A stretch of 64,000 nucleotides of DNA. It comes from Escherichia coli. Its GTDB lineage: Bacteria > Pseudomonadota > Gammaproteobacteria > Enterobacterales > Enterobacteriaceae. The first letter of the stretch is position 1; each line of letters opens with the position of its first letter. The translations under genes and the position numbers were made by a program. A model generated the notes under the pieces. The model had not been told where the DNA came from, ran no database searches, and worked only from the letters and a program-made list of their open reading frames with translations. Of this stretch, positions 3,765 through 44,178 are shown piece after piece. Location: the NCBI RefSeq assembly GCF_050320075.1, contig NZ_CP190018.1; one strand, 5' to 3'.

Positions 3765-4835
3765 ATGGCAGGACTGAAATTACAGGCAGTAACCAAAAGC
3801 TGGGATGGCAAAACCCAGGTCATTAAACCGCTGACCCTTGATGTGGCGGATGGCGAATTTATCGTGATGGTCGGGCCGTCTGGCTGCGGGAAATCGACGT
3901 TATTGCGAATGGTGGCCGGACTGGAGCGGGTAACGACGGGCGATATCTGGATCGACCGCAAGCGTGTCACCGAAATGGAGCCGAAAGATCGCGGGATTGC
4001 GATGGTGTTCCAGAACTACGCGCTCTATCCGCATATGAGCGTAGAGGAGAATATGGCGTGGGGGCTGAAAATTCGCGGCATGGGCAAGCAACAAATTGCC
4101 GAACGTGTTAAAGAAGCGGCGCGCATTCTGGAGCTGGACGGCCTGCTTAAGCGCCGCCCGCGTGAGTTATCTGGCGGTCAGCGTCAGCGTGTGGCGATGG
4201 GGCGTGCGATTGTGCGTGAGCCGGCAGTGTTCCTGTTTGATGAGCCGCTCTCTAACCTCGATGCCAAGTTGCGTGTGCAGATGCGTCTTGAACTGCAACA
4301 GCTGCACCGTCGCCTGAAAACGACTTCACTCTACGTTACCCACGATCAGGTTGAGGCGATGACGCTCGCCCAGCGAGTAATGGTGATGAACGGCGGCGTT
4401 GCCGAACAGATTGGCACGCCAGTTGAAGTGTACGAAAAGCCCGCCAGCCTGTTTGTGGCGAGTTTTATCGGCAGTCCGGCGATGAATCTGCTGGCAGGGC
4501 GTGTGAATAACGAAGGTACGCATTTCGAACTGGACGGCGGTATCGCGCTGCCGCTAAACGGTGGCTACCGTCAGTATGCTGGACGTAAAATGACTCTCGG
4601 CATTCGCCCGGAACATATTACGCTACGTTCGCAGGCTGAAGGTGGCGTGCCGCTGGTGATGGACACGCTGGAGATCCTCGGCGCAGATAACCTGGCGCAC
4701 GGACGCTGGGGCGAACAGAAGCTGGTGGTGCGACTGGCGCATCAGGAGCGCCCGACGGCAGGCAGCACGCTGTGGCTGCATCTGCCGGAAAATCAGCTGC
4801 ATCTTTTTGATGGTGAAACAGGACAACGAGTATGA
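3765..4835 (+). CDS. ugpC: sn-glycerol-3-phosphate ABC transporter ATP-binding protein
   Basis: 356 aa from ATG 3765 ([13 protein letters not shown]...); Walker [13 protein letters not shown] signature LSGGQRQR; ATG one nt after ugpE stop. Confidence 0.95.
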
Positions 4836-5575
4836 GTAACTGGCCTTATCCCCGCATCGTCGCCCATCGTGGCGGCGGTAAACTGGCCCCGGAGAACACC
4901 CTGGCAGCAATCGACGTCGGGGCAAAATACGGTCATAAGATGATCGAATTTGACGCGAAGTTATCGAAAGATGGCGAGATCTTCCTGCTCCATGACGACA
5001 ATCTTGAACGCACCAGCAACGGCTGGGGCGTCGCGGGCGATCTGAACTGGCAGGATTTACTGCGCGTGGATGCAGGCAGTTGGTACAGCAAAGCGTTTAA
5101 AGGTGAGCCGCTACCGTTGCTTTCGCAGGTGGCGGAACGCTGTCGCGAACACGGGATGATGGCGAATATCGAAATCAAACCCACCACTGGCACCGGGCCA
5201 TTAACGGGCAAAATGGTGGCGCTGGCGGCACGCGAACTGTGGGCCGATATGACGCCGCCGCTGCTGTCATCGTTTGAGATTGATGCTTTAGAAGCTGCAC
5301 AACAGGCTGCACCGGAACTGCCGCGCGGTTTGTTGTTGGATGAGTGGCGCGACGACTGGCGAGAACTGACCGCGCGACTGGGCTGCGTCTCTATTCATCT
5401 CAATCATAAGTTGCTTGATAAAGCGCGAGTGATGCAGTTGAAAGACGCCGGATTACGGATTCTGGTTTATACCGTCAATAAACCCCAGCGCGCGGCAGAG
5501 TTGCTGCGCTGGGGCGTGGATTGCATCTGCACCGATGCGATTGACGTGATTGGTCCGAACTTTACGGCCCAATAG
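4832..5575 (+). CDS. ugpQ: glycerophosphodiester phosphodiesterase
   Basis: 247 aa; start overlaps ugpC stop; length and sequence match UgpQ. Confidence 0.95.
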
Positions 5576-6002
5576 TTTTCAACGGAATATCAGGCTGCGG
5601 CGTGCTGGGCTGATTCAGCATGTCGCCGTTTCTCCTCTCCGGCAACATATGCTGCTGATTCAACGGACTATCCGGATTACGGTTGCTGTTTAACATCCCG
5701 CCGTTGGTGTTGGGCAGCATTTGCTGCCGGGCGGGATTTCGCTCCCCCGGCTGTGACTGCAACACCCGCTGAGAATTATTGTTGATCTGGTTTTCTAAAT
5801 GCTGCTGTTGCAACTGCGTTTGCGTTTTCAGTTGCTGATTCAGCATCCCTTTTTGCTGGATTTGCTGCGTTTGCATTTGAGTCTGCATCCGCTGCTGGCT
5901 GGGGATCTGATATCCCGGCTGGTTGGGGTTGTTCAGAGTATTAATGGGCTGTGCAAAGCCGACAAACGGCAGGAGTGCCGTCAAAAGCAGAAGTCGTTTC
6001 AT
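5562..6002 (-). CDS. yhhA: secreted Gln-rich protein YhhA
   Basis: 146 aa with signal peptide and Q-rich repeats; convergent with ugpQ, 3' ends overlap by 14 nt. Confidence 0.85.
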
Positions 6003-15396: not shown

Positions 15397-17493
15397 ATGG
15401 AAAAGCACGGAGCTGAATTGCTTTTACAGCGGATGTTAGGAAATACCACCGCTACTTTCAGGGAAGGGCAATGGGAAGCCATAGATGCAGTGGTTAATCA
15501 GCGGCGAAAACTGCTGGTTGTACAGCGCACCGGCTGGGGGAAAAGTGCCGTGTACTTCATCGCCAGTAAAATCTTCCGCGATCGCGGCGCTGGCCCGACA
15601 ATTATCATCTCTCCTTTGCTTGCCCTGATGCGTAACCAGGTTGCCGCCGCTGAACGGTTAGGTATTACGGCTGAAACGTTGAATTCTACAAACAGGGAAG
15701 AATGGCAGCGCATTAGCGATAAGTTGCTGCAAGGTGAGGTCGATTGCTTGCTGGTTTCCCCGGAACGTTTGGCAAACCAGGACTTTATCGAAACGGTTTT
15801 ATATCCTATAGCCGATCGTATTGGCTTGCTTGTGGTCGACGAGGCGCACTGCATCTCTGATTGGGGCCACGATTTTCGCCCGGATTACCGACGTATATTA
15901 GATATTTTGCGCCAACTGCCTGCGAATACCCCTGTTCTGGGTACAACCGCGACAGCGAATAACCGTGTTGTTGAGGATATCCGTCAGCAATTGGGTGACA
16001 TTGTGATTCAGCGTGGAACGCTGGCTCGCGAAAGTTTGGCGCTTGATGCCTTAGTCTTAGGAGAACAGTCATCCCGTCTGGCATGGTTAGCAACGGTTAT
16101 CCCTCAGTTTTCCAAATCGGGAATTGTTTATACCCTGACGACTCGCGATGCTGAACTTGTCGCCGAGTGGTTAAGGAAAAATGGTATCAGTGCATTTGCT
16201 TACTACAGCGGCGTGACTTGTGAAGGCGCGGAAGATTCTAATACTGCCAGGGAATATCTGGAGCAGGCACTGCTGGCAAATAAAATCAAAGTGCTGGTCG
16301 CGACGACGGCATTAGGTATGGGGTTTGATAAACCTGATTTAGGTTTCGTCATTCATTATCAGATGCCGGGGTCTATTGTCGGTTACTACCAACAGGTGGG
16401 GCGTGCCGGGCGTGCTATAGATTCCGCAGTTGGCATATTGCTTTGTGGTGGTGAAGACCGCGCTATTCATCAATTCTTCCGTGAAAGCGCCTTTCCTGCG
16501 GAGGCGCAAATTCATGAAATACTCAACGTACTTAGCGAGAATGACGGTCTTACCCTACGAGGCATTGAACAACGGACGAATCTTCGTTATGGGCAAATAG
16601 AAAAAGCACTGAAATTATTGGTAGCGGAAAATCCATCGCCTGTGGTGTATACCGAGAAATTATGGCGCAGAACTATCGTCAGTTTTTCTCCTGATCATGA
16701 ACGAATTAACCATTTGATGAATCAGAGAAAAAGTGAACTGGCAGACGTTGAAAGCTATATCACGACCAAGGAGTGCAAAATGCAATTTCTGCGCCGTGCA
16801 CTCGATGAGCCAAGTGCCGAACGTTGTGGTAAATGTAGCAGTTGTCTTCAGCATCCGTTATTGTCGCCCGACATTGATAGCGGCTTACTCCATGCGGCAA
16901 ATTTATTTATTAAACACGCTGACCTGCCGTTAAATCTCAATAAACAGGTGGCAGCTGGGGCTTTTACGCAATACGGATTTAAAGGGAACTTGCCTGCGGG
17001 TTTACAAGGATCTACGGGGCGAATCCTTTCTCGTTGGGGAGATTCCGGGTGGGGAAAGCAGGTAGCACAGGAGAAAAAAACGGGGCGCTTAAGTGATGAG
17101 CTGGTAGAAGCATGTGCGGAAATGGTTCGCCAACGCTGGAATCCGCATCCTGAACCAACCTGGGTATGCTGCGTTCCTTCATTAAGGCACCTCGACCTGG
17201 TTCCTGATTTTGCCCGGCGACTGGCGGCGAAACTTGGCTTACCTTTTATTGATGCCATTGAAAAAGTCGTGGACAATCCACCGCAGAAAATGCAGCAAAA
17301 CCGTTTTCACCAGTGTCAAAATCTCGACGGGGCGTTTGTGATTACCCCTCCTTTGATGCCAGGTCCGGCGTTGCTGGTTGACGATATCGTGGATTCTGCA
17401 TGGACGCTGACAGTTCTGACAGCACTGTTACGCCAGGCAGGTTGCCCGACGGTTTATCCTCTTGCCCTTGCTTCTACCTCGGTAAAAAATTGA
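15397..17493 (+). CDS. RecQ-family DEAH helicase with C-terminal CxxC and phosphoribosyltransferase-like domain (PsyrT/RqlH-like candidate toxin or effector)
   Basis: 698 aa; Walker A QRTGWGKSAV, DEAH box VVDEAHCISDWGHDFRPDYRR, helicase-C motif YQQVGRAGR, then CGKCSSC and a PRTase-type nucleotide loop LLVDDIVDSAWT near the C-terminus; SD gcaggag upstream of the ATG. Confidence 0.85.
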   Translation: MEKHGAELLLQRMLGNTTATFREGQWEAIDAVVNQRRKLLVVQRTGWGKSAVYFIASKIFRDRGAGPTIIISPLLALMRNQVAAAERLGITAETLNSTNREEWQRISDKLLQGEVDCLLVSPERLANQDFIETVLYPIADRIGLLVVDEAHCISDWGHDFRPDYRRILDILRQLPANTPVLGTTATANNRVVEDIRQQLGDIVIQRGTLARESLALDALVLGEQSSRLAWLATVIPQFSKSGIVYTLTTRDAELVAEWLRKNGISAFAYYSGVTCEGAEDSNTAREYLEQALLANKIKVLVATTALGMGFDKPDLGFVIHYQMPGSIVGYYQQVGRAGRAIDSAVGILLCGGEDRAIHQFFRESAFPAEAQIHEILNVLSENDGLTLRGIEQRTNLRYGQIEKALKLLVAENPSPVVYTEKLWRRTIVSFSPDHERINHLMNQRKSELADVESYITTKECKMQFLRRALDEPSAERCGKCSSCLQHPLLSPDIDSGLLHAANLFIKHADLPLNLNKQVAAGAFTQYGFKGNLPAGLQGSTGRILSRWGDSGWGKQVAQEKKTGRLSDELVEACAEMVRQRWNPHPEPTWVCCVPSLRHLDLVPDFARRLAAKLGLPFIDAIEKVVDNPPQKMQQNRFHQCQNLDGAFVITPPLMPGPALLVDDIVDSAWTLTVLTALLRQAGCPTVYPLALASTSVKN

Positions 17494-18695
17494 TGAATCT
17501 TTCAGCCAATGCACAAGCGACTCTCCTGCTAACCAGCGATTTTTCTCGCGCGGCGGCGAGTGAGTATAAACCTCTTAGTAATAGTGAATGGGGGAAGTTT
17601 GCATTATGGCTGAAGCACCAACGTATCAGTCCCGCCGATCTTCTGGTGCCGCAACCGCAAGAGAAACTTACAGGCTGGAGCGATCCGCGTATTTCTCAGG
17701 AGCGTATTCTTGGCTTGCTGGCGCGTGGTCATAGTCTGGCGTTGGCGGTAGATAAGTGGCAACGCGCCGGTTTATGGATCTTAACCCGCGGAGATGCCGA
17801 TTATCCCGTTCGCTTGAAAAACCGATTGCGAACGGATGCACCTCCCGTTTTATTTGGCTGCGGGAATAAAGCATTACTGCAAGCGGAAGGTATGGCGATT
17901 GTTGGCTCGCGAGATGCTCCGACTGCCGATTTGCGCTATACCCAACAACTGGCAGCGAAACTGGCCCAACAGGGGATTTGCGTTATCTCTGGTGGTGCGC
18001 GAGGTATTGATGAATGTGCAATAGCGTCGGCGCTGGAGGCCGGAGGAACTGCCGTTGGCGTATTAGCTGATAGCTTGTTAAAAACGAGCACGTTAGTGAA
18101 ATGGCGTGAAGGGCTTATAGCAGGCAACCTGGTGTTGATTTCACCGTTTTACCCAGAGGTACGTTTCACCGTCGGCAATGCGATGGCGCGGAATAAATAT
18201 ATTTATTGCCTTGCTGAAAGCGCAATGGTTGTACGTGCGGGAATGACCGGTGGAACGATAACCGGAGCGATGGAGGCGTTAAAACATCAGTGGCTGCCTG
18301 TTCTGGTTAAACCAAATCAGGATGTGCAATCAGCCAATTCACGATTAGTAGAAAATGGGGCGTCATGGAGTGCTGAACAGGCTGAGAATGTGACGATCAG
18401 ACTGCCAGACGTTCCTGGGCTGATGTATGACAGAGCACTCCGTAACGCTCAACCAGAATTGTTTTCGCTGCACGAAGATGACGCAAATTACGCAGTGATG
18501 CCCTCGCATACCCCTGTCGATTTTTATCAACTTTTTGTGGCGGAACTGGCGATCCTTGCAAAGGAATCGATAAGTATTGAAAGGCTGGCGTCTTGTACTG
18601 GTTTAACCATCGAACAAATTAGTATGTGGCTGAACCGCGCAGAAGAAGAGGGAAGGGTTATCCGATTGGGCGAAGGTCATTATCAGTTCAGGTAA
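17493..18695 (+). CDS. DprA/Smf-like Rossmann-fold protein (PsyrA/RqlI-like candidate antitoxin or partner)
   Basis: 400 aa from ATG 17493 (MNLSANAQATLLL...); DprA signature VISGGARGIDECAIASALEAGGTAVGVLADSL and NAMARNKYIYCLAESAMVV; the ATG overlaps the helicase TGA by one nt. Confidence 0.8.
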   Translation: MNLSANAQATLLLTSDFSRAAASEYKPLSNSEWGKFALWLKHQRISPADLLVPQPQEKLTGWSDPRISQERILGLLARGHSLALAVDKWQRAGLWILTRGDADYPVRLKNRLRTDAPPVLFGCGNKALLQAEGMAIVGSRDAPTADLRYTQQLAAKLAQQGICVISGGARGIDECAIASALEAGGTAVGVLADSLLKTSTLVKWREGLIAGNLVLISPFYPEVRFTVGNAMARNKYIYCLAESAMVVRAGMTGGTITGAMEALKHQWLPVLVKPNQDVQSANSRLVENGASWSAEQAENVTIRLPDVPGLMYDRALRNAQPELFSLHEDDANYAVMPSHTPVDFYQLFVAELAILAKESISIERLASCTGLTIEQISMWLNRAEEEGRVIRLGEGHYQFR

Positions 18696-30386: not shown

Positions 30387-31904
30387 ATGGAAAGAATAAT
30401 GCAAAACGGAAAATGGATTTTGACCTCGCTGGTAATGACTTTTTTTGGCATCCCCATACTGGCGCAATTTTTGGCAGCGGTTGTTGCCATGCTGGGGGCC
30501 GGGCTTGCCGCTATTCTTGAGTTTTGCAATTTACTCTTTACACCAACAATTTATCTTCTACTCAACGTCTTTATGCTGACGCTGGGCGCATTACTGCTAT
30601 TTTTCTCTGGGCGAGTGTGGGCGGGCGATAGCGCACCAGAAAACAGAGAAATAGCCGCCTGGCGACAATGTCTTTTTTTAGTTCCCGCTTTATTAACCCT
30701 GGTTGGCTGGATAATCACGCTACATCTGGCAGATTATCAATTTCGCCAGATGGGAGCCGGTTGGTTGGCAAACCTTATGCTTCCCTGGTTGGGCGTTTTT
30801 ACAGTCTCATTCGTCGGTGGTGAGTACTGGTGGATAGTCATTATTCCCGTTGGCGCGCATATCAGTTTTTCACTGGGATACGGCTGGCCGACCAGACACC
30901 CTTTAACCGGCACCTCCGGTCTACGTTGCCGTAATTTACTTCTGTTCATTCTTCTCTTACTGGGTATTGTCGCTGGTTATCAGGCTTATTTATATAAACA
31001 GCTTAATCCCGGCGTCGGTGTGCGTGAAAATATTGATACCTGGGCCTGGCGACCCGATAAACTTAATAATCAACTGACGCCACTGCGTGGTAAACCACAA
31101 ATTCAATTTACGCAAAACTGGCCGCGACTCGATGGCGCTACGGCGGCGTACCCCATTTATGCCTCTGCATTTTATGCATTAAGTGTAATACCAGAGGATT
31201 TTCACGTTTGGGATTATCTGGATAACTCTCGTACGCAAGAAGCATATAACAAAATCGTTAACGGTGATGCCGATATTATTTTCGTGGCGCAACCTTCCGA
31301 TGGGCAAAAAAAACGCGCTGAGAAATCGGGCGTCACTTTGCTGTACACGCCATTTGCCCGTGAAGCGTTTGTTTTCATCGTCAATGCGGATAATCCGGTT
31401 AATTCCCTGACTGAACAACAAGTGCGTGACATTTTTAGTGGCGCAATTACCAACTGGCGCACGGTTGGCGGTAACGATCAGGAGATCCAGACCTGGCAAC
31501 GCCCGGAAGACTCTGGCAGCCAGACAGTGATGCAATCGCAGGTCATGAAAAATGTCCGCATGATCTCGCCGCAGGAAACCGAAGTGGCAAGCATGATGGA
31601 GGGAATGATTAAAGTCGTTGCCGAATACCGTAATACAAACAACGCAATAGGCTACACCTTCCGCTATTACGCAACACAAATGAATGCCGATAAAAATATA
31701 AAACTGCTAGCGATTAACGGTATTGCACCGACTGCAGAAAATATTCGCAATGGCAAATATCCCTATGTCGTCGATGCATTTATGGTAACGCGGGACAATA
31801 TGACGTCAGAAACACAAAAACTGGTTGAATGGTTTTTAACGCCGCAGGGGCAGAGTCTGGTGGAAGATGTGGGCTATGTGCCGCTGTATCCAACAATGAA
31901 ATAA
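30387..31904 (+). CDS. membrane protein with N-terminal multi-TM domain fused to a periplasmic PstS-like (PBP-like_2) binding domain
   Basis: 505 aa; first ~190 aa hydrophobic; C-terminal domain has the PstS-type motif NPVNSLTEQQVRDIFSGAITNWRTVGG and QRPEDSGSQTVM; tataat -10 at 30364-30369; alternative start ATG 30399. Confidence 0.8.
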   Translation: MERIMQNGKWILTSLVMTFFGIPILAQFLAAVVAMLGAGLAAILEFCNLLFTPTIYLLLNVFMLTLGALLLFFSGRVWAGDSAPENREIAAWRQCLFLVPALLTLVGWIITLHLADYQFRQMGAGWLANLMLPWLGVFTVSFVGGEYWWIVIIPVGAHISFSLGYGWPTRHPLTGTSGLRCRNLLLFILLLLGIVAGYQAYLYKQLNPGVGVRENIDTWAWRPDKLNNQLTPLRGKPQIQFTQNWPRLDGATAAYPIYASAFYALSVIPEDFHVWDYLDNSRTQEAYNKIVNGDADIIFVAQPSDGQKKRAEKSGVTLLYTPFAREAFVFIVNADNPVNSLTEQQVRDIFSGAITNWRTVGGNDQEIQTWQRPEDSGSQTVMQSQVMKNVRMISPQETEVASMMEGMIKVVAEYRNTNNAIGYTFRYYATQMNADKNIKLLAINGIAPTAENIRNGKYPYVVDAFMVTRDNMTSETQKLVEWFLTPQGQSLVEDVGYVPLYPTMK

Positions 31905-31929
31905 CGCTCGAGAGAAAGGAATCAGCGCA

Positions 31930-32922
31930 ATGAATAAATTCACCTGTGTTTTACTATTAGGTACGGCGCTACTGGCGGGATGTGTCGACCGGGAAGGGTA
32001 CTATAACAGCGTCAGGGAAGAAGACAGCCATGGACTGACGTCTCTGCGGGGGCAACCTGAATTACGTTACAACGATGATTGGTCAAGATGGCCGAGAGTG
32101 TACGGCGCTACAGCCTTATACCCGCTGTATGCCTCCGCGTATTATGAATTAGTACCCGAGCCAAAAGATAAGGATCGAACCTCGCTGGCCTGGCAGGCGT
32201 ATGGTTTGCAACAAACCCGAACAGCTGAAGCCTACGATAGTCTGATTAAGGGTACCGCGACGGTTATTTTTGTTGCACAACCGTCGGAAGGACAGAAAAA
32301 ACGTGCAGAAGAAGCAGGTGTTAAACTCAAATATACCGCTTTCGCCCGCGAAGCCTTTGTCTTTATCGTTGATATCAAAAACCCGGTTAATTCACTTAGC
32401 GAACAGCAGGTCAAAGACATTTTTAGCGGTAAAGTGAGTCGCTGGAATAAAGTGGGCGGCGGTGACGAAGGTATAAAAATCTGGCAGCGGCCAGAAGATT
32501 CTGGAAGCCAAACGGTTATGAAGGGACTGGTTATGCAAGATACTCCAATGCTGCCAGCCAAAAAATCCACTGTTATCGATCTTATGGGCGGTTTAATTAC
32601 CGAAGTCGCCGACTACCAAAATACACCATCTTCTATTGGATACACCTTCCACTATTACGTCACACGTATGAATGACAATATGCTCAAAATGCGCAAACAG
32701 ATCAAACTGCTGGCTATAAATGGCGTTGCACCTACAGAGGAAAATATCCGTAACGGCACTTATCCGTACATAATTCATGCTTATATGGTGACGCACGAAA
32801 ACCCTACGCTGGAAACGCAGAAATTCGTCGACTGGTTTTTAAGCCCGCAGGGACAGCAATTGGTAGAGGATGTGGGCTATGTGCCGATTTATGACGCATC
32901 ATCCGAATCATCAGGACAATAA
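31930..32922 (+). CDS. lipoprotein with PstS-like (PBP-like_2) binding domain, paralog of the C-terminal domain of the upstream gene
   Basis: 330 aa; lipobox LLAGC; shares IFVAQPSxGQKKRAE..GV.L.YT.FAREAFVFIV..NPVNSL.EQQV.DIFSG...W..VGG...I..WQRPEDSGSQTVM with the upstream ORF; SD aaagga. Confidence 0.8.
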   Translation: MNKFTCVLLLGTALLAGCVDREGYYNSVREEDSHGLTSLRGQPELRYNDDWSRWPRVYGATALYPLYASAYYELVPEPKDKDRTSLAWQAYGLQQTRTAEAYDSLIKGTATVIFVAQPSEGQKKRAEEAGVKLKYTAFAREAFVFIVDIKNPVNSLSEQQVKDIFSGKVSRWNKVGGGDEGIKIWQRPEDSGSQTVMKGLVMQDTPMLPAKKSTVIDLMGGLITEVADYQNTPSSIGYTFHYYVTRMNDNMLKMRKQIKLLAINGVAPTEENIRNGTYPYIIHAYMVTHENPTLETQKFVDWFLSPQGQQLVEDVGYVPIYDASSESSGQ

Positions 32923-32924
32923 AG

Positions 32925-33525
32925 ATGAATAAAATCAGACTTTATATTCCTCCGTTAATTCTTGGTTTTGTTATTGTGCCGTTGTTGGTGTGGCCGACGG
33001 TGGTTGCGCTGGCTGCTTGTGTTATCACGCTGAGTTTTATGGGAGAAATACTGTTCTCTATCCCGCTCATGTTCAGGCGTATTTCACTTCTGGAATTCCA
33101 ACTTGGGTTATTGGCTGAATATGCACTTTTTTTTTCTGTGCCATGTGTTGCGTTGGTTGGCAATTTTCTTGCAGAGCTCAATCTGAACTGAAAAGCAGAC
33201 TCCATTGTTGGTTGGTATTTGCACCAGTTTATTTCTGGTTGCTCCTGTGGAATATCATTTTCTATGTCGCGCCAGCGCAAATTGCTTTGCTGGAAAATAT
33301 GCGCAATTTCTTTCTGACCATTGTCTGGTTACCCCTGAATTTTTTCAATTTGGGTCTCAGCCGTGGACTGACTTTATCGGTCCGATAAGCGCCCAGCTTG
33401 GTTTTGCATTGGGATATTATTGCCAGTGGCGTAGCAAAAATAGAAGTCAGAGGAAGAAGTGGGGCGAGTGGGTAATGTGTCTGAGTTTTGTTACGTTGGG
33501 TATGATTGCGTGGGCTTTGCGGTAA
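32925..33525 (+). pseudogene. frameshifted membrane-domain gene, paralog of the N-terminal TM domain of the 30387 ORF
   Basis: Three successive overlapping ORFs in frames 0, 2 and 1 (32925-33191, 33143-33388, 33205-33525) each align to consecutive parts of the TM domain of the 505-aa protein (e.g. NMRNFFLTIVWLPLNFFNLG vs QMGAGWLANLMLPWLGVFTVS; PISAQLGFALGY vs PVGAHISFSLGY). Confidence 0.55.
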
Positions 33526-35793: not shown

Positions 35794-36636
<843 letters not shown>

Positions 36637-36652
36637 TTCCAGGGATTTATAA

Positions 36653-37411
36653 ATGAAACAAACACAACGTCACAACGGTATTATCGAACTGGTTAAACAG
36701 CAAGGTTATGTCAGTACCGAGGAACTGGTGGAGCACTTCTCCGTCAGCCCGCAGACTATTCGTCGTGACCTCAATGAGCTGGCAGAGCAAAACCTGATCC
36801 TGCGCCATCATGGCGGCGCGGCGCTGCCTTCCAGTTCGGTTAACACCCCGTGGCACGATCGCAAGGCCACCCAGACCGAAGAAAAAGAGCGCATCGCCCG
36901 CAAAGTGGCGGAGCAAATCCCCAACGGCTCGACGCTGTTTATCGATATCGGCACCACCCCGGAAGCGGTGGCGCACGCGCTGCTTAATCACAGCAATTTG
37001 CGCATTGTCACCAACAATCTCAACGTCGCTAACACGTTGATGGTAAAAGAAGATTTCCGTATTATTCTCGCCGGTGGCGAATTACGTAGCCGCGATGGTG
37101 GGATCATAGGCGAAGCGACGCTCGATTTTATCTCCCAGTTCCGCCTTGATTTCGGCATTCTGGGGATCAGCGGCATCGATAGCGACGGCTCGTTGCTGGA
37201 ATTCGATTACCACGAAGTTCGCACCAAACGCGCTATTATTGAGAACTCGCGCCACGTTATGCTGGTTGTCGATCACTCGAAATTTGGCCGTAATGCGATG
37301 GTCAATATGGGGAGCATCAGCATGGTTGATGCTGTCTACACCGACGCCCCGCCGCCAGTAAGCGTCATGCAGGTGCTGACGGACCATCATATTCAACTGG
37401 AGCTGTGCTGA
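36653..37411 (+). CDS. glpR: glycerol-3-phosphate regulon repressor, DeoR family
   Basis: 252 aa; N-terminal HTH; 3' end overlaps convergent rtcR by 19 nt. Confidence 0.95.
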   Translation: MKQTQRHNGIIELVKQQGYVSTEELVEHFSVSPQTIRRDLNELAEQNLILRHHGGAALPSSSVNTPWHDRKATQTEEKERIARKVAEQIPNGSTLFIDIGTTPEAVAHALLNHSNLRIVTNNLNVANTLMVKEDFRIILAGGELRSRDGGIIGEATLDFISQFRLDFGILGISGIDSDGSLLEFDYHEVRTKRAIIENSRHVMLVVDHSKFGRNAMVNMGSISMVDAVYTDAPPPVSVMQVLTDHHIQLELC

Positions 37412-38991
37412 TCCTGCAAGGCTTCCCACGTCAGACCAAAACGCGCCAGGTATTTGCGTAGCCGATCTGCGTCGTTGACGCTGGCTTTGCCCTGGCGCGA
37501 AACGTCAAAAAGCTGGCGTCCGGCAGCAGAAAGCGACTTTGCCTGGCGGCAGATAGCGATAACGTGTTCCAGTTGCATACGGTCGAAGAGATCGATGTTT
37601 TCTGCCTCTGCGCCCAGCAGTTGTGTAAGCGCGGAGGGACGGCTCTCCTGCCAGTTATAGCGCAGACGGTTTATCTCATCTTCAACCACGTCCAGAGTGA
37701 TGCGTCCGCTAGTGGCAAAGGTGGCCATCCGCGTGACGCTGGCAGAAAGTTCGCGAAAGTTACCGCGCCATGTTGCCTGGGGAGATGTCGCAAAGGCCAG
37801 CCAGGCGCGCCGCGCTTCGGTGTTAAAACGCACGCTGTCACCAGTGAGTGAGGCGTGGCGCTCCACTTCATAATCCAGGTTCGGTTCAATATCTTCCTGG
37901 CGCTGGAGTAGACCCGGCAGGGTGAAGGTCCAGAGATTGATCCGCGCGTACAGATCTTCGCGGAATTTGCCTTCGGCAACCAGCTGACGCAAATCGCGCA
38001 CCGTTCCGGCGATAAGCTGAAAGTCGCTACTCACCTGGCGATCGCTGCCAAACGGATAAAAGGTTTTCTCTTCAATGGCTTTCAGCAGCATTGCCTGTTC
38101 GTCTGCGCCCAATTCGCCAATCTCATCAAGAAATAACATCCCGCCGTTGGCGCTGCGTAATAATCCTTCCCGCGACTCCCGCGCCCCGGTAAACGCGCCT
38201 TTCACATGACCAAACAGCGTCGACATGGCGGTATCGCCACGCAGGGTGGCGCAGTTCATTTCCACAAACGCGCCGCTAAACTGATGCCGCGCCTGTTTCA
38301 ATTCAAAGATGCGTCGCGCCAGAAATGACTTACCCGCCCCGGTCGGGCCGTTAAGCAGGATCGGTGCGCGGGATTTGATCGCCACTTTTTCGATCTGCTC
38401 AATCATGCGGTTGAAGTGTGGGTTACGCGTGGCGATGCCTGATTTGAGGAAATCGAGCGTTTGTTGGCGTTCCTCGGCAAAGCGGCTGGCGATAGCGTTA
38501 TAACGGCTTAAATCGAGATCGATAATCGTCACTTCACCTGCGCCGCGCGGTTGTTCTTTTTTGCGCGGTGGTGAAGATTGTATCAACCGGGCGGGCAGGT
38601 AACGCGCTTCTGCCAGTAGAAACCAGCAAATCTGCGCGACGTGGGTGCCGGTGGTGATGTGAATTAAATAATCTTCATTTTCTGGCTGGAACGCGTAACC
38701 ACGGGCGAAATCATGCAGGCAGGCGTAAACCTCTTCGAAATCCCACGGGTTATGCAGTTCTATCTCAACGCCCACCACTTCTGTTTCTGGCGAAACGCTG
38801 GCGATATCGCGTTTAAGCGTTTCGAATAGCGAGCGCGAGCGGGCGTCGTGCAATAATTCCAGCCGATCGATAACTAACGATTCTTGCTGGCATAGACAGA
38901 GTGTCGGACGCCATTTTGACCAGCGCTGACTGCCGCGCCCGGCATAATCCAGCACCGTTCCGACAAAACCAAAAGCCACTGTTTTACGCAT
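37393..38991 (-). CDS. rtcR: sigma-54-dependent transcriptional activator of rtcBA
   Basis: 532 aa; AAA+ sigma-54 interaction domain (GPTGAGKS, GAFTGA). Confidence 0.95.
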   Translation of the reverse strand: MRKTVAFGFVGTVLDYAGRGSQRWSKWRPTLCLCQQESLVIDRLELLHDARSRSLFETLKRDIASVSPETEVVGVEIELHNPWDFEEVYACLHDFARGYAFQPENEDYLIHITTGTHVAQICWFLLAEARYLPARLIQSSPPRKKEQPRGAGEVTIIDLDLSRYNAIASRFAEERQQTLDFLKSGIATRNPHFNRMIEQIEKVAIKSRAPILLNGPTGAGKSFLARRIFELKQARHQFSGAFVEMNCATLRGDTAMSTLFGHVKGAFTGARESREGLLRSANGGMLFLDEIGELGADEQAMLLKAIEEKTFYPFGSDRQVSSDFQLIAGTVRDLRQLVAEGKFREDLYARINLWTFTLPGLLQRQEDIEPNLDYEVERHASLTGDSVRFNTEARRAWLAFATSPQATWRGNFRELSASVTRMATFATSGRITLDVVEDEINRLRYNWQESRPSALTQLLGAEAENIDLFDRMQLEHVIAICRQAKSLSAAGRQLFDVSRQGKASVNDADRLRKYLARFGLTWEALQDQHSSS

Positions 38992-39125
38992 CTTAGATAT
39001 CCTTATAAAAGACGATATTTCATTATCGGTAAATTGGCTTTGCGGGAAATCTCCGTTTACGGACGTAAAGGTATAATTTTTTTAAAAACAATGAATTAAA
39101 AAATTAAGCTGCTTATTTAATTTTC

Positions 39126-39141
39126 TGGTACGACGGTTGCA
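39126..39141 (+). promoter_or_regulatory. sigma-54 (-24/-12) promoter of rtcBA
   Basis: tGGtacgacggttGCa: GG-N10-GC spacing with TGGTAC-N5-TTGCA, 37 bp upstream of the rtcB ATG and downstream of divergent rtcR. Confidence 0.65.
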
Positions 39142-39177
39142 ATTATCAGGACATACCAACGAAAAGAGAAAAACAAA

Positions 39178-40404
39178 ATGAATTACGAATTACTGACCAC
39201 TGAAAATGCCCCGGTAAAAATGTGGACCAAAGGCGTGCCGGTAGAGGCCGATGCGCGTCAGCAACTTATTAATACGGCGAAGATGCCGTTTATTTTCAAA
39301 CATATTGCGGTAATGCCTGATGTACACCTGGGTAAAGGTTCCACCATTGGTAGCGTGATCCCAACCAAAGGGGCGATTATTCCGGCGGCGGTGGGCGTGG
39401 ATATCGGTTGTGGAATGAACGCGCTGCGTACCGCGTTAACGGCGGCAGACCTGCCTGAAAACCTGGCGGAGCTGCGTCAGGCGATTGAAACAGCCGTGCC
39501 GCACGGACGTACTACCGGACGTTGTAAACGTGATAAAGGCGCATGGGAAAATCCGCCTGTTAACGTCGATGCGAAATGGGCTGAGCTGGAAGCCGGTTAT
39601 CAGTGGTTAACGCAAAAATATCCCCGTTTCCTGAATACCAATAACTATAAACACCTGGGAACGCTGGGAACGGGTAACCACTTTATTGAAATCTGCCTTG
39701 ATGAGTCGGACCAGGTGTGGATTATGCTGCACTCCGGTTCACGCGGAATTGGTAACGCCATCGGGACTTACTTTATCGATCTGGCGCAAAAAGAGATGCA
39801 GGACCAACTTGAGACGTTGCCGTCGCGTGATCTGGCGTACTTTATGGAAGGTACGGAATACTTTGATGATTACCTGAAAGCCGTGGCCTGGGCGCAGCTT
39901 TTTGCCAGCCTTAACCGCGATGCGATGATGGAAAACGTGGTAACGGCGTTGCAGAGCGTTACGCAGAAAACGGTAAGACAGCCACAAACGCTGGCGATGG
40001 AAGAGATCAACTGTCATCACAACTATGTGCAAAAAGAACAGCACTTTGGTGAAGAGATCTACGTGACGCGTAAAGGCGCGGTGTCTGCGCGTGCGGGTCA
40101 ATATGGAATTATTCCAGGGTCGATGGGAGCGAAAAGCTTTATCGTCCGTGGGCTGGGAAATGAAGAATCGTTCTGTTCGTGCAGCCACGGTGCCGGGCGG
40201 GTAATGAGCCGTACCAAAGCGAAAAAACTGTTCAGCGTGGAAGATCAAATTCGTGCCACCGCGCATGTGGAATGCCGTAAAGATGCCGAAGTGATCGACG
40301 AAATCCCGATGGCGTATAAAGATATTGATGCGGTGATGGCGGCACAAAGCGATCTGGTGGAAGTTATCTATACCCTGCGTCAGGTGGTGTGCGTAAAAGG
40401 ATAA
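39178..40404 (+). CDS. rtcB: RNA-splicing ligase RtcB
   Basis: 408 aa; RtcB metal-binding His/Cys motifs (HSGSRG, CHHNY). Confidence 0.95.
   Translation: MNYELLTTENAPVKMWTKGVPVEADARQQLINTAKMPFIFKHIAVMPDVHLGKGSTIGSVIPTKGAIIPAAVGVDIGCGMNALRTALTAADLPENLAELRQAIETAVPHGRTTGRCKRDKGAWENPPVNVDAKWAELEAGYQWLTQKYPRFLNTNNYKHLGTLGTGNHFIEICLDESDQVWIMLHSGSRGIGNAIGTYFIDLAQKEMQDQLETLPSRDLAYFMEGTEYFDDYLKAVAWAQLFASLNRDAMMENVVTALQSVTQKTVRQPQTLAMEEINCHHNYVQKEQHFGEEIYVTRKGAVSARAGQYGIIPGSMGAKSFIVRGLGNEESFCSCSHGAGRVMSRTKAKKLFSVEDQIRATAHVECRKDAEVIDEIPMAYKDIDAVMAAQSDLVEVIYTLRQVVCVKG

Positions 40405-41424
<1,020 letters not shown>

Positions 41425-41466: not shown

Positions 41467-44178
<2,712 letters not shown>

Follow-up and report, generated by a model that had tools for sequence, protein, structure and literature searches.

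Two regulatory genes of Escherichia coli, glpR and rtcR, run into one another tail to tail and read the same 19 nucleotides on opposite strands. The locus thereby raises the question of whether this overlap is a true feature of the chromosome, how its length is determined, which of the two proteins the shared bases serve, and whether the arrangement couples the expression of the two genes. We addressed this question in a 64-kb stretch of E. coli DNA (hereafter the window), in which an earlier note had located both stop codons and proposed that the convergent ends leave no room for a terminator and make transcriptional interference possible. Our preferred answer, to which we assign a probability of about 0.82, is that the 19-nt overlap arose passively, as a consequence of the rtcR-rtcBA cassette abutting glpR, that it belongs to the class of overlaps that arise when a stop codon shifts, and that Rho ends the glpR transcripts. 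The overlap need not have a regulatory function of its own, and none is indicated.

The overlap, as read off the sequence, occupies positions 37393..37411, where the 3' ends of the two genes are shared on opposite strands. The length of 19 nt and the two stop positions given in the earlier note proved exact to the base in the sequence, and the annotations of NZ_CP042899.1 and of K-12 MG1655 concur. Several RefSeq E. coli chromosomes match the region 36600-39100 at 100% identity; in one of these, NZ_CP042899.1, RefSeq/PGAP places glpR at 382358..383116 and rtcR at 383098..384696, again with an overlap of 19 nt; the MG1655 annotation (rtcR 3558268..3559866, glpR 3559848..3560605) also overlaps by 19 nt. 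Both genes are genuine protein-coding genes. GlpR matches the NCBIfam equivalog NF008154 over residues 1-252 with 552.8 bits (cutoff 331) and carries the Pfam domains HTH_DeoR and DeoRC, and RtcR matches the equivalog NF038308 with 845.3 bits (cutoff 650), over residues 1-527 alone, and carries the Pfam domains RtcR and Sigma54_activat. We rejected as extremely improbable the reading that the overlap is an artefact of annotation and that one of the proteins truly ends upstream of it: both frames are open as far as the stops listed in Table 1, independent annotations concur, none of the reference annotations checked places either stop upstream of the overlap, GlpR homologues end in ...LELC in more than 100 sequences, and there is no upstream in-frame stop in rtcR. 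The fact that the RtcR family model ends at residue 527 reflects variability of the tail, not a stop codon. Among solved structures, none covers either C-terminal tail; the RtcR matches end at about residue 440, and the GlpR match (7l6l, DeoR) ends at residue 239. A literature search on glpR and rtcR jointly found no paper that treats their overlap. The overlap is real, already annotated and ordinary, and it belongs to a well-described class.

Table 1. Features of the glpR/rtcR junction and of the second convergent overlap, in window coordinates
Feature	Position	Strand	Remarks
ugpQ/yhhA convergent overlap	5562..5575		14 nt; ugpQ 4832..5575 (+), yhhA 5562..6002 (−); annotated
glpR coding sequence	36653..37411	+	ATG ORF, 252 aa; DeoR-family repressor, glycerol-3-phosphate regulon; intact in this strain
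rtcR stop codon TGA	37393-37395	−	reverse complement of T/CA across glpR codons Ile247 (ATT)/Gln248 (CAA)
RtcR codons 527-532 (DQHSSS)	37396..37413	−	non-conserved tail
glpR stop codon TGA	37409-37411	+	middle base G at 37410
rtcR coding sequence	38991..37393	−	ATG ORF, 532 aa; sigma-54 activator of the rtcBA RNA-repair operon
Rho termination region, approximate centre	37745	+	MG1655 3,559,514 (−), converted via locus L002
rtcB	39178..40404	+	annotation transfer, offset +34295
rtcA	40408..41424	+	annotation transfer, offset +34295
malT	41467..44172	−	next gene beyond the rtc cassette

The rtcR stop is the first in-frame antisense stop on entry into glpR, and the overlap takes in one base of the RtcR D527 codon, the whole of Q528-S532 and the stop. 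Its phase is (123:213), in which glpR codon positions 1, 2 and 3 lie opposite rtcR positions 2, 1 and 3, and the wobble positions of the two genes coincide. In four other Escherichia species-level genomes and in K. oxytoca, glpR ends in TGA, RtcR ends in ...DQHSSS and the overlap is 19 nt. In Salmonella enterica, glpR ends in TGT TAA and RtcR has 527 aa, ending in ...LQN before a TAA stop that is the reverse complement of T/TA, and the overlap is 4 nt; an overlap of 4 nt is also found in Superficieibacter electus, in which the glpR stop is TAG and RtcR ends in ...MAN. Intestinirhabdus alba has a TGA stop in glpR and a 7-nt deletion just outside this gene, and its frameshifted RtcR tail, ...ISTAPAEYGDR, extends the overlap to 35 nt.

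Judging from these sequences, the length of rtcR is set by the middle base of the glpR stop codon, the G at 37410. A TAA or TAG at the end of glpR, together with the wobble base of the preceding Cys codon, provides rtcR with a stop in antisense, and the overlap is 4 nt; a TGA reads CAG (Gln) in antisense, and rtcR continues for five codons (QHSSS) to the next antisense stop. The conserved coding sequence of rtcR ends essentially at the glpR stop codon. When the Salmonella rtcR stop is read through, the sequence continues as HSSS and a stop, identical to the end of the E. coli tail, and the reciprocal change made in silico in the window (g37410a) yields ...ALQD-stop-HSSS-stop, i.e., the short form of RtcR is restored. 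In a rough neighbour-joining tree built from RtcR, genomes with a 4-nt overlap and genomes with a 19-nt overlap are intermingled, Salmonella being placed next to K. oxytoca. This pattern suggests that the toggle has switched repeatedly and is near-neutral.

The two proteins differ in how firmly they hold their ends. The C-terminus (Q/H)LELC of GlpR is kept in ~105 of 120 homologues, at identities down to 79%, and it is also kept in genomes that have malT, malP or nfuA, not rtcR, downstream of glpR. In alignments of RtcR covering 19 loci (from Escherichia to Desulfovibrionaceae) and ~100 database homologues, the conserved core ends in RLRKYLARFGLxWxx[VLI][QKR], near residue 526-527, and the overlap lies wholly in the tail beyond this core, where both length and sequence vary across the family. 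The RtcR extension is less conserved than the LELC terminus of GlpR, as is expected of the stop-codon-shift class, and its HSSS is the antisense reading of the GlpR L-E-L-C codons. As far as the alignments tell, it is GlpR that dictates the shared sequence, and the RtcR tail is a tolerated, non-conserved appendage.

We consider it very improbable that the overlap is selected for itself, be it through a function of the QHSSS tail of RtcR or through dual coding that protects the junction from being lost. Within E. coli the 19-nt state is fixed, other Escherichia species and K. oxytoca have it too, and every substitution seen inside it is synonymous in both frames; those found in other Escherichia species, GAG>GAA and CAA>CAG, fall on shared wobble positions. 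However, the RtcR proteins of Salmonella and Superficieibacter do without the tail, that of Intestinirhabdus has a different, frameshifted one, and the tails vary widely across the family; the tail sequence is, moreover, wholly set by the antisense of conserved GlpR codons, and rtc deletions occur freely and leave the overlap behind as a pseudogene remnant. With the wobble positions coinciding in this phase, the shared bases can still change without altering either protein. Of the 5423 E. coli genomes with a match to the 30-nt stretch that contains the overlap, 5398 (99.5%) have it without any change, and the 301 nt around the overlap are 4-9% different from most strains; by our own calculation, with 26 differences over the 301 nt, a 30-nt stretch would have a rough chance of ~0.07 of containing none. 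This near-invariance is only weakly significant; it could hint at extra constraint, although it is compatible with dual coding, which would explain it.

An origin as a passive by-product agrees with what is known of convergent overlaps, of which 58 were counted in E. coli by Lillo & Krakauer 2007 (PMC2174442) and 75 pairs by Huvet & Stumpf 2014 (PMC4161906). As in the overlaps ascribed to stop-codon mutation in these two studies, the partners here are genuine opposite-strand genes with short shared 3' ends, one stop is lost or absent, and the ORF runs to the next in-frame stop; such an origin fits the published genome-wide statistics on convergent overlaps (PMC2174442). We see no essential difference from this class, and in glpR/rtcR the toggle is the stop chosen by the partner gene (TGA vs TAA/TAG). 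The abundant 4-nt overlaps CTAA, TTAA, CTAG and TTAG have the same phase (123:213) as glpR/rtcR, and the relatives described above display that 4-nt state; among convergent overlaps of at least 5 nt, this phase accounts for 18% and is the rarest (PMC2174442). Antisense read-through over the three frames of glpR has lengths of 19, 47 and 330 nt, the 19 nt of rtcR being the minimum. Without a stop at the 4-nt position, 19 nt is the shortest run-on possible and, relative to chance, is unremarkable. Within the window, two of the nine annotated convergent pairs overlap. The second, ugpQ/yhhA, is also annotated in RefSeq for the near-identical strain and is comparable to glpR/rtcR in arrangement and length, but it involves other genes in another phase (14 nt leaves a remainder of 2 on division by three, and 19 nt leaves 1).

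The gene order in the window is glpEGR–rtcR–rtcBA–malT, and the rtcR-rtcB-rtcA block (37393..41424), flanked by glpR and malT, is an accessory cassette. It is missing from a multi-species Enterobacteriaceae GlpR cluster and from Enterobacter ludwigii, Shimwellia and Pluralibacter, in which glpR converges directly on malT across a 9-89-nt spacer. In relatives without rtc (locus L028), the glpR–malT spacer is a canonical hairpin followed by a T-run directly after glpR (AACCGCCttgcGGCGGTTTTT); where the cassette is present, there is zero spacer on the glpR side. The gene 3' of glpR varies in Enterobacteriaceae, being malT, malP, nfuA, an MFS fragment or rtcR (L028 4260..4279; L030-L035), and some variants of GlpR have lost the stop and gained 2-7 residues (…LELCRE, …LELCRPITGEM). 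The sequence on the 3' side of glpR seems prone to rearrangement.

Losses within the cassette are also seen in E. coli. Approximately 577 of 5425 genomes (10.6%, ST131-type strains included) lack rtcB entirely, along with the greater part of rtcR and the 5' portion of rtcA, the deleted span corresponding to about 37777..41007 of the window (locus L003, 3144..3930). In strain SK1144, window position ~37776 is joined to ~41008, with ~14 shared nt at the junction. The deletion leaves a 384-399-nt remnant of the rtcR 3' end that still overlaps glpR, and the proximity of its left endpoint to the Rho region listed in Table 1 is probably a coincidence. In E. coli ETEC1701 (L004, 2428..4553), the glpR–rtcR junction is rearranged or deleted and glpR has no C-terminus; rtcR is 523 aa long there, the annotated overlap is 64 nt, and 46 nt are shared between the tblastn matches of glpR and rtcR.

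How transcription ends at a junction of this kind was the second concern of the earlier note. Its statement that glpR and rtcR have zero intergenic space holds, the coding ends overlapping throughout 37393..37411, and neither scanning nor folding found a convincing intrinsic terminator at the junction. Its phrase "no room for a terminator" is nevertheless overstated, because the terminators of convergently overlapping genes can be located within the partner gene (PMC2174442). The scan for intrinsic terminators and promoters over 3 kb around the junction gave 8 terminator-like sites against 4.3 ± 2.0 in shuffles, none of them at the junction. RNA folding downstream of the two stops gave z values of −1.8 and −0.1 against shuffles, with no hairpin plus U-tract; behind the strongest hairpin (~37441-37500), the sequence is A-rich, not U-rich. 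A permissive Rfam search of 36400-39300 returned 0 matches at E <= 1. The junction is comparable to a bidirectional intrinsic terminator in its position between two convergent 3' ends, for which the hairpin of the rtc-free relatives (glpR/malT) is an example, but the hairpin and T-tract of such a terminator are absent from glpR/rtcR.

Published data point instead to Rho. Supplementary file 2 of Adams et al. 2021 (PMC7815308) includes, for K-12 MG1655, a Rho termination region at 3,559,514 (−), antisense to rtcR, for which the upstream/downstream reads are 154/29 in untreated cells and 153/256 in the presence of bicyclomycin (Rho score 8.9, p = 2.7e-27). The position, which in the window falls ~334 nt beyond the glpR stop and inside rtcR in antisense, is coarse, as the method compares 800-nt windows. 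The same tables contain no further 3' ends in 3,559,400-3,560,599 and none for the rtcR-sense strand, and our C/G-ratio profiles 3' of both stops have no clear C>G bubble in the neighbourhood of that Rho region. That glpR-sense polymerase enters rtcR and is then stopped by Rho is supported by these MG1655 data, obtained in a strain whose glpR is frameshifted. In MG1655, glpR is a pseudogene with a 1-nt frameshift near codon 51 (locus L002, 3849..4606), and it is intact here; this matters for applying K-12 transcript data to the locus, and Rho may load differently in MG1655 than in this glpR+ strain. With both spacer and hairpin absent, we propose that glpEGR transcripts would extend into the 3' portion of rtcR until Rho ended them a few hundred nucleotides further on; rtcR transcripts would presumably terminate within glpR.

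This read-through bears directly on the idea that the tail-to-tail arrangement amounts to regulatory coupling between glycerol-3-phosphate regulation and the RNA-repair response, in the manner of an excludon or of transcriptional interference, such that read-through from glpEGR lowers rtcR by polymerase collision or duplex-RNA cleavage, or vice versa. The junction has neither spacer nor intrinsic terminator, the strong bicyclomycin-sensitive region past the glpR stop in K-12 implies that glpR-sense polymerase enters rtcR, and our promoter scan found no promoter-like site on the + strand in 37411–~37745 that could be an alternative source of the reads; interference of the collision type is also reported to be frequent in bacteria (PMC10349824). 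We nonetheless consider such coupling unlikely. Rho halts the read-through within a few hundred nucleotides, short of the rtcR promoter and of most of this 1.6-kb gene; the length of the overlap shifts among 4, 19 and 35 nt in relatives; and the rtc cassette is dispensable, being missing in many Enterobacteriaceae and mostly deleted in the E. coli genomes mentioned above. It also weighs against coupling that we know of no functional link between GlpR and RtcR. Neither gene is found in the supplementary tables that accompany a genome-wide study of interference (PMC10349824), and RtcR is described as controlled at the level of protein activity via its CARF domain (PMC7790460). The likeness to excludons (PMC7154746) is confined to the convergence of genes without a terminator between them and to a transcript that, in published data, extends into the other gene, whereas excludons have long antisense overlaps and opposite expression of functionally opposed genes; the read-through at glpR/rtcR covers a few hundred nucleotides and is curtailed by Rho.

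The interference with rtcR expression that the earlier note held possible is a hypothetical effect. Any such interference would stem from the abutment of the two genes and not from the 19 shared bases, since Salmonella has the same arrangement with an overlap of merely 4 nt. We may speculate, while regarding it as quite improbable, that polymerase from glpEGR might run into the rtcR 3' end and adjust the level of RtcR to carbon status, and that Rho might determine how strong this coupling is. The glpE promoter is cAMP-CRP-dependent. If such coupling exists, it would join glycerol metabolism to RNA repair through a small cis-antisense link, confined to lineages in which the rtc cassette lies against glpR.

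Several other features of the window were observed in passing. The segment 7914..8682 (yrhB/yrhD/yrhA/tssD), a variable island adjoining ggt, differs from NZ_CP042899.1, the blocks on its two sides being offset by 1191 nt and the window being ~1.2 kb shorter; outside this segment, the two sequences are 99.98-100% identical. Between gntU and yhgN (15397..18695) lie genes for a RecQ-family helicase and a DprA-like protein, with an annotated same-strand overlap of 94 nt (17400..17493) that may be due to a mis-called start. The glgP–glpD interval contains two genes for PstS-family phosphate-binding proteins and a frameshifted hypothetical gene (30396..33525), and in K-12 this interval contains yzgL alone.

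As a coding feature, the glpR/rtcR overlap matters little, and it is present in every E. coli reference annotation. Its value is that of a worked example, in which the stop codon of the partner gene sets a convergent overlap to either 4 or 19 nt and in which the rtc cassette occupies the place against glpR where relatives have a hairpin terminator; it also serves as a pointer to the published Rho-dependent ending of glpR-sense transcription inside rtcR. Interference in cis, if true, would be a minor addition to the regulation of rtcR.
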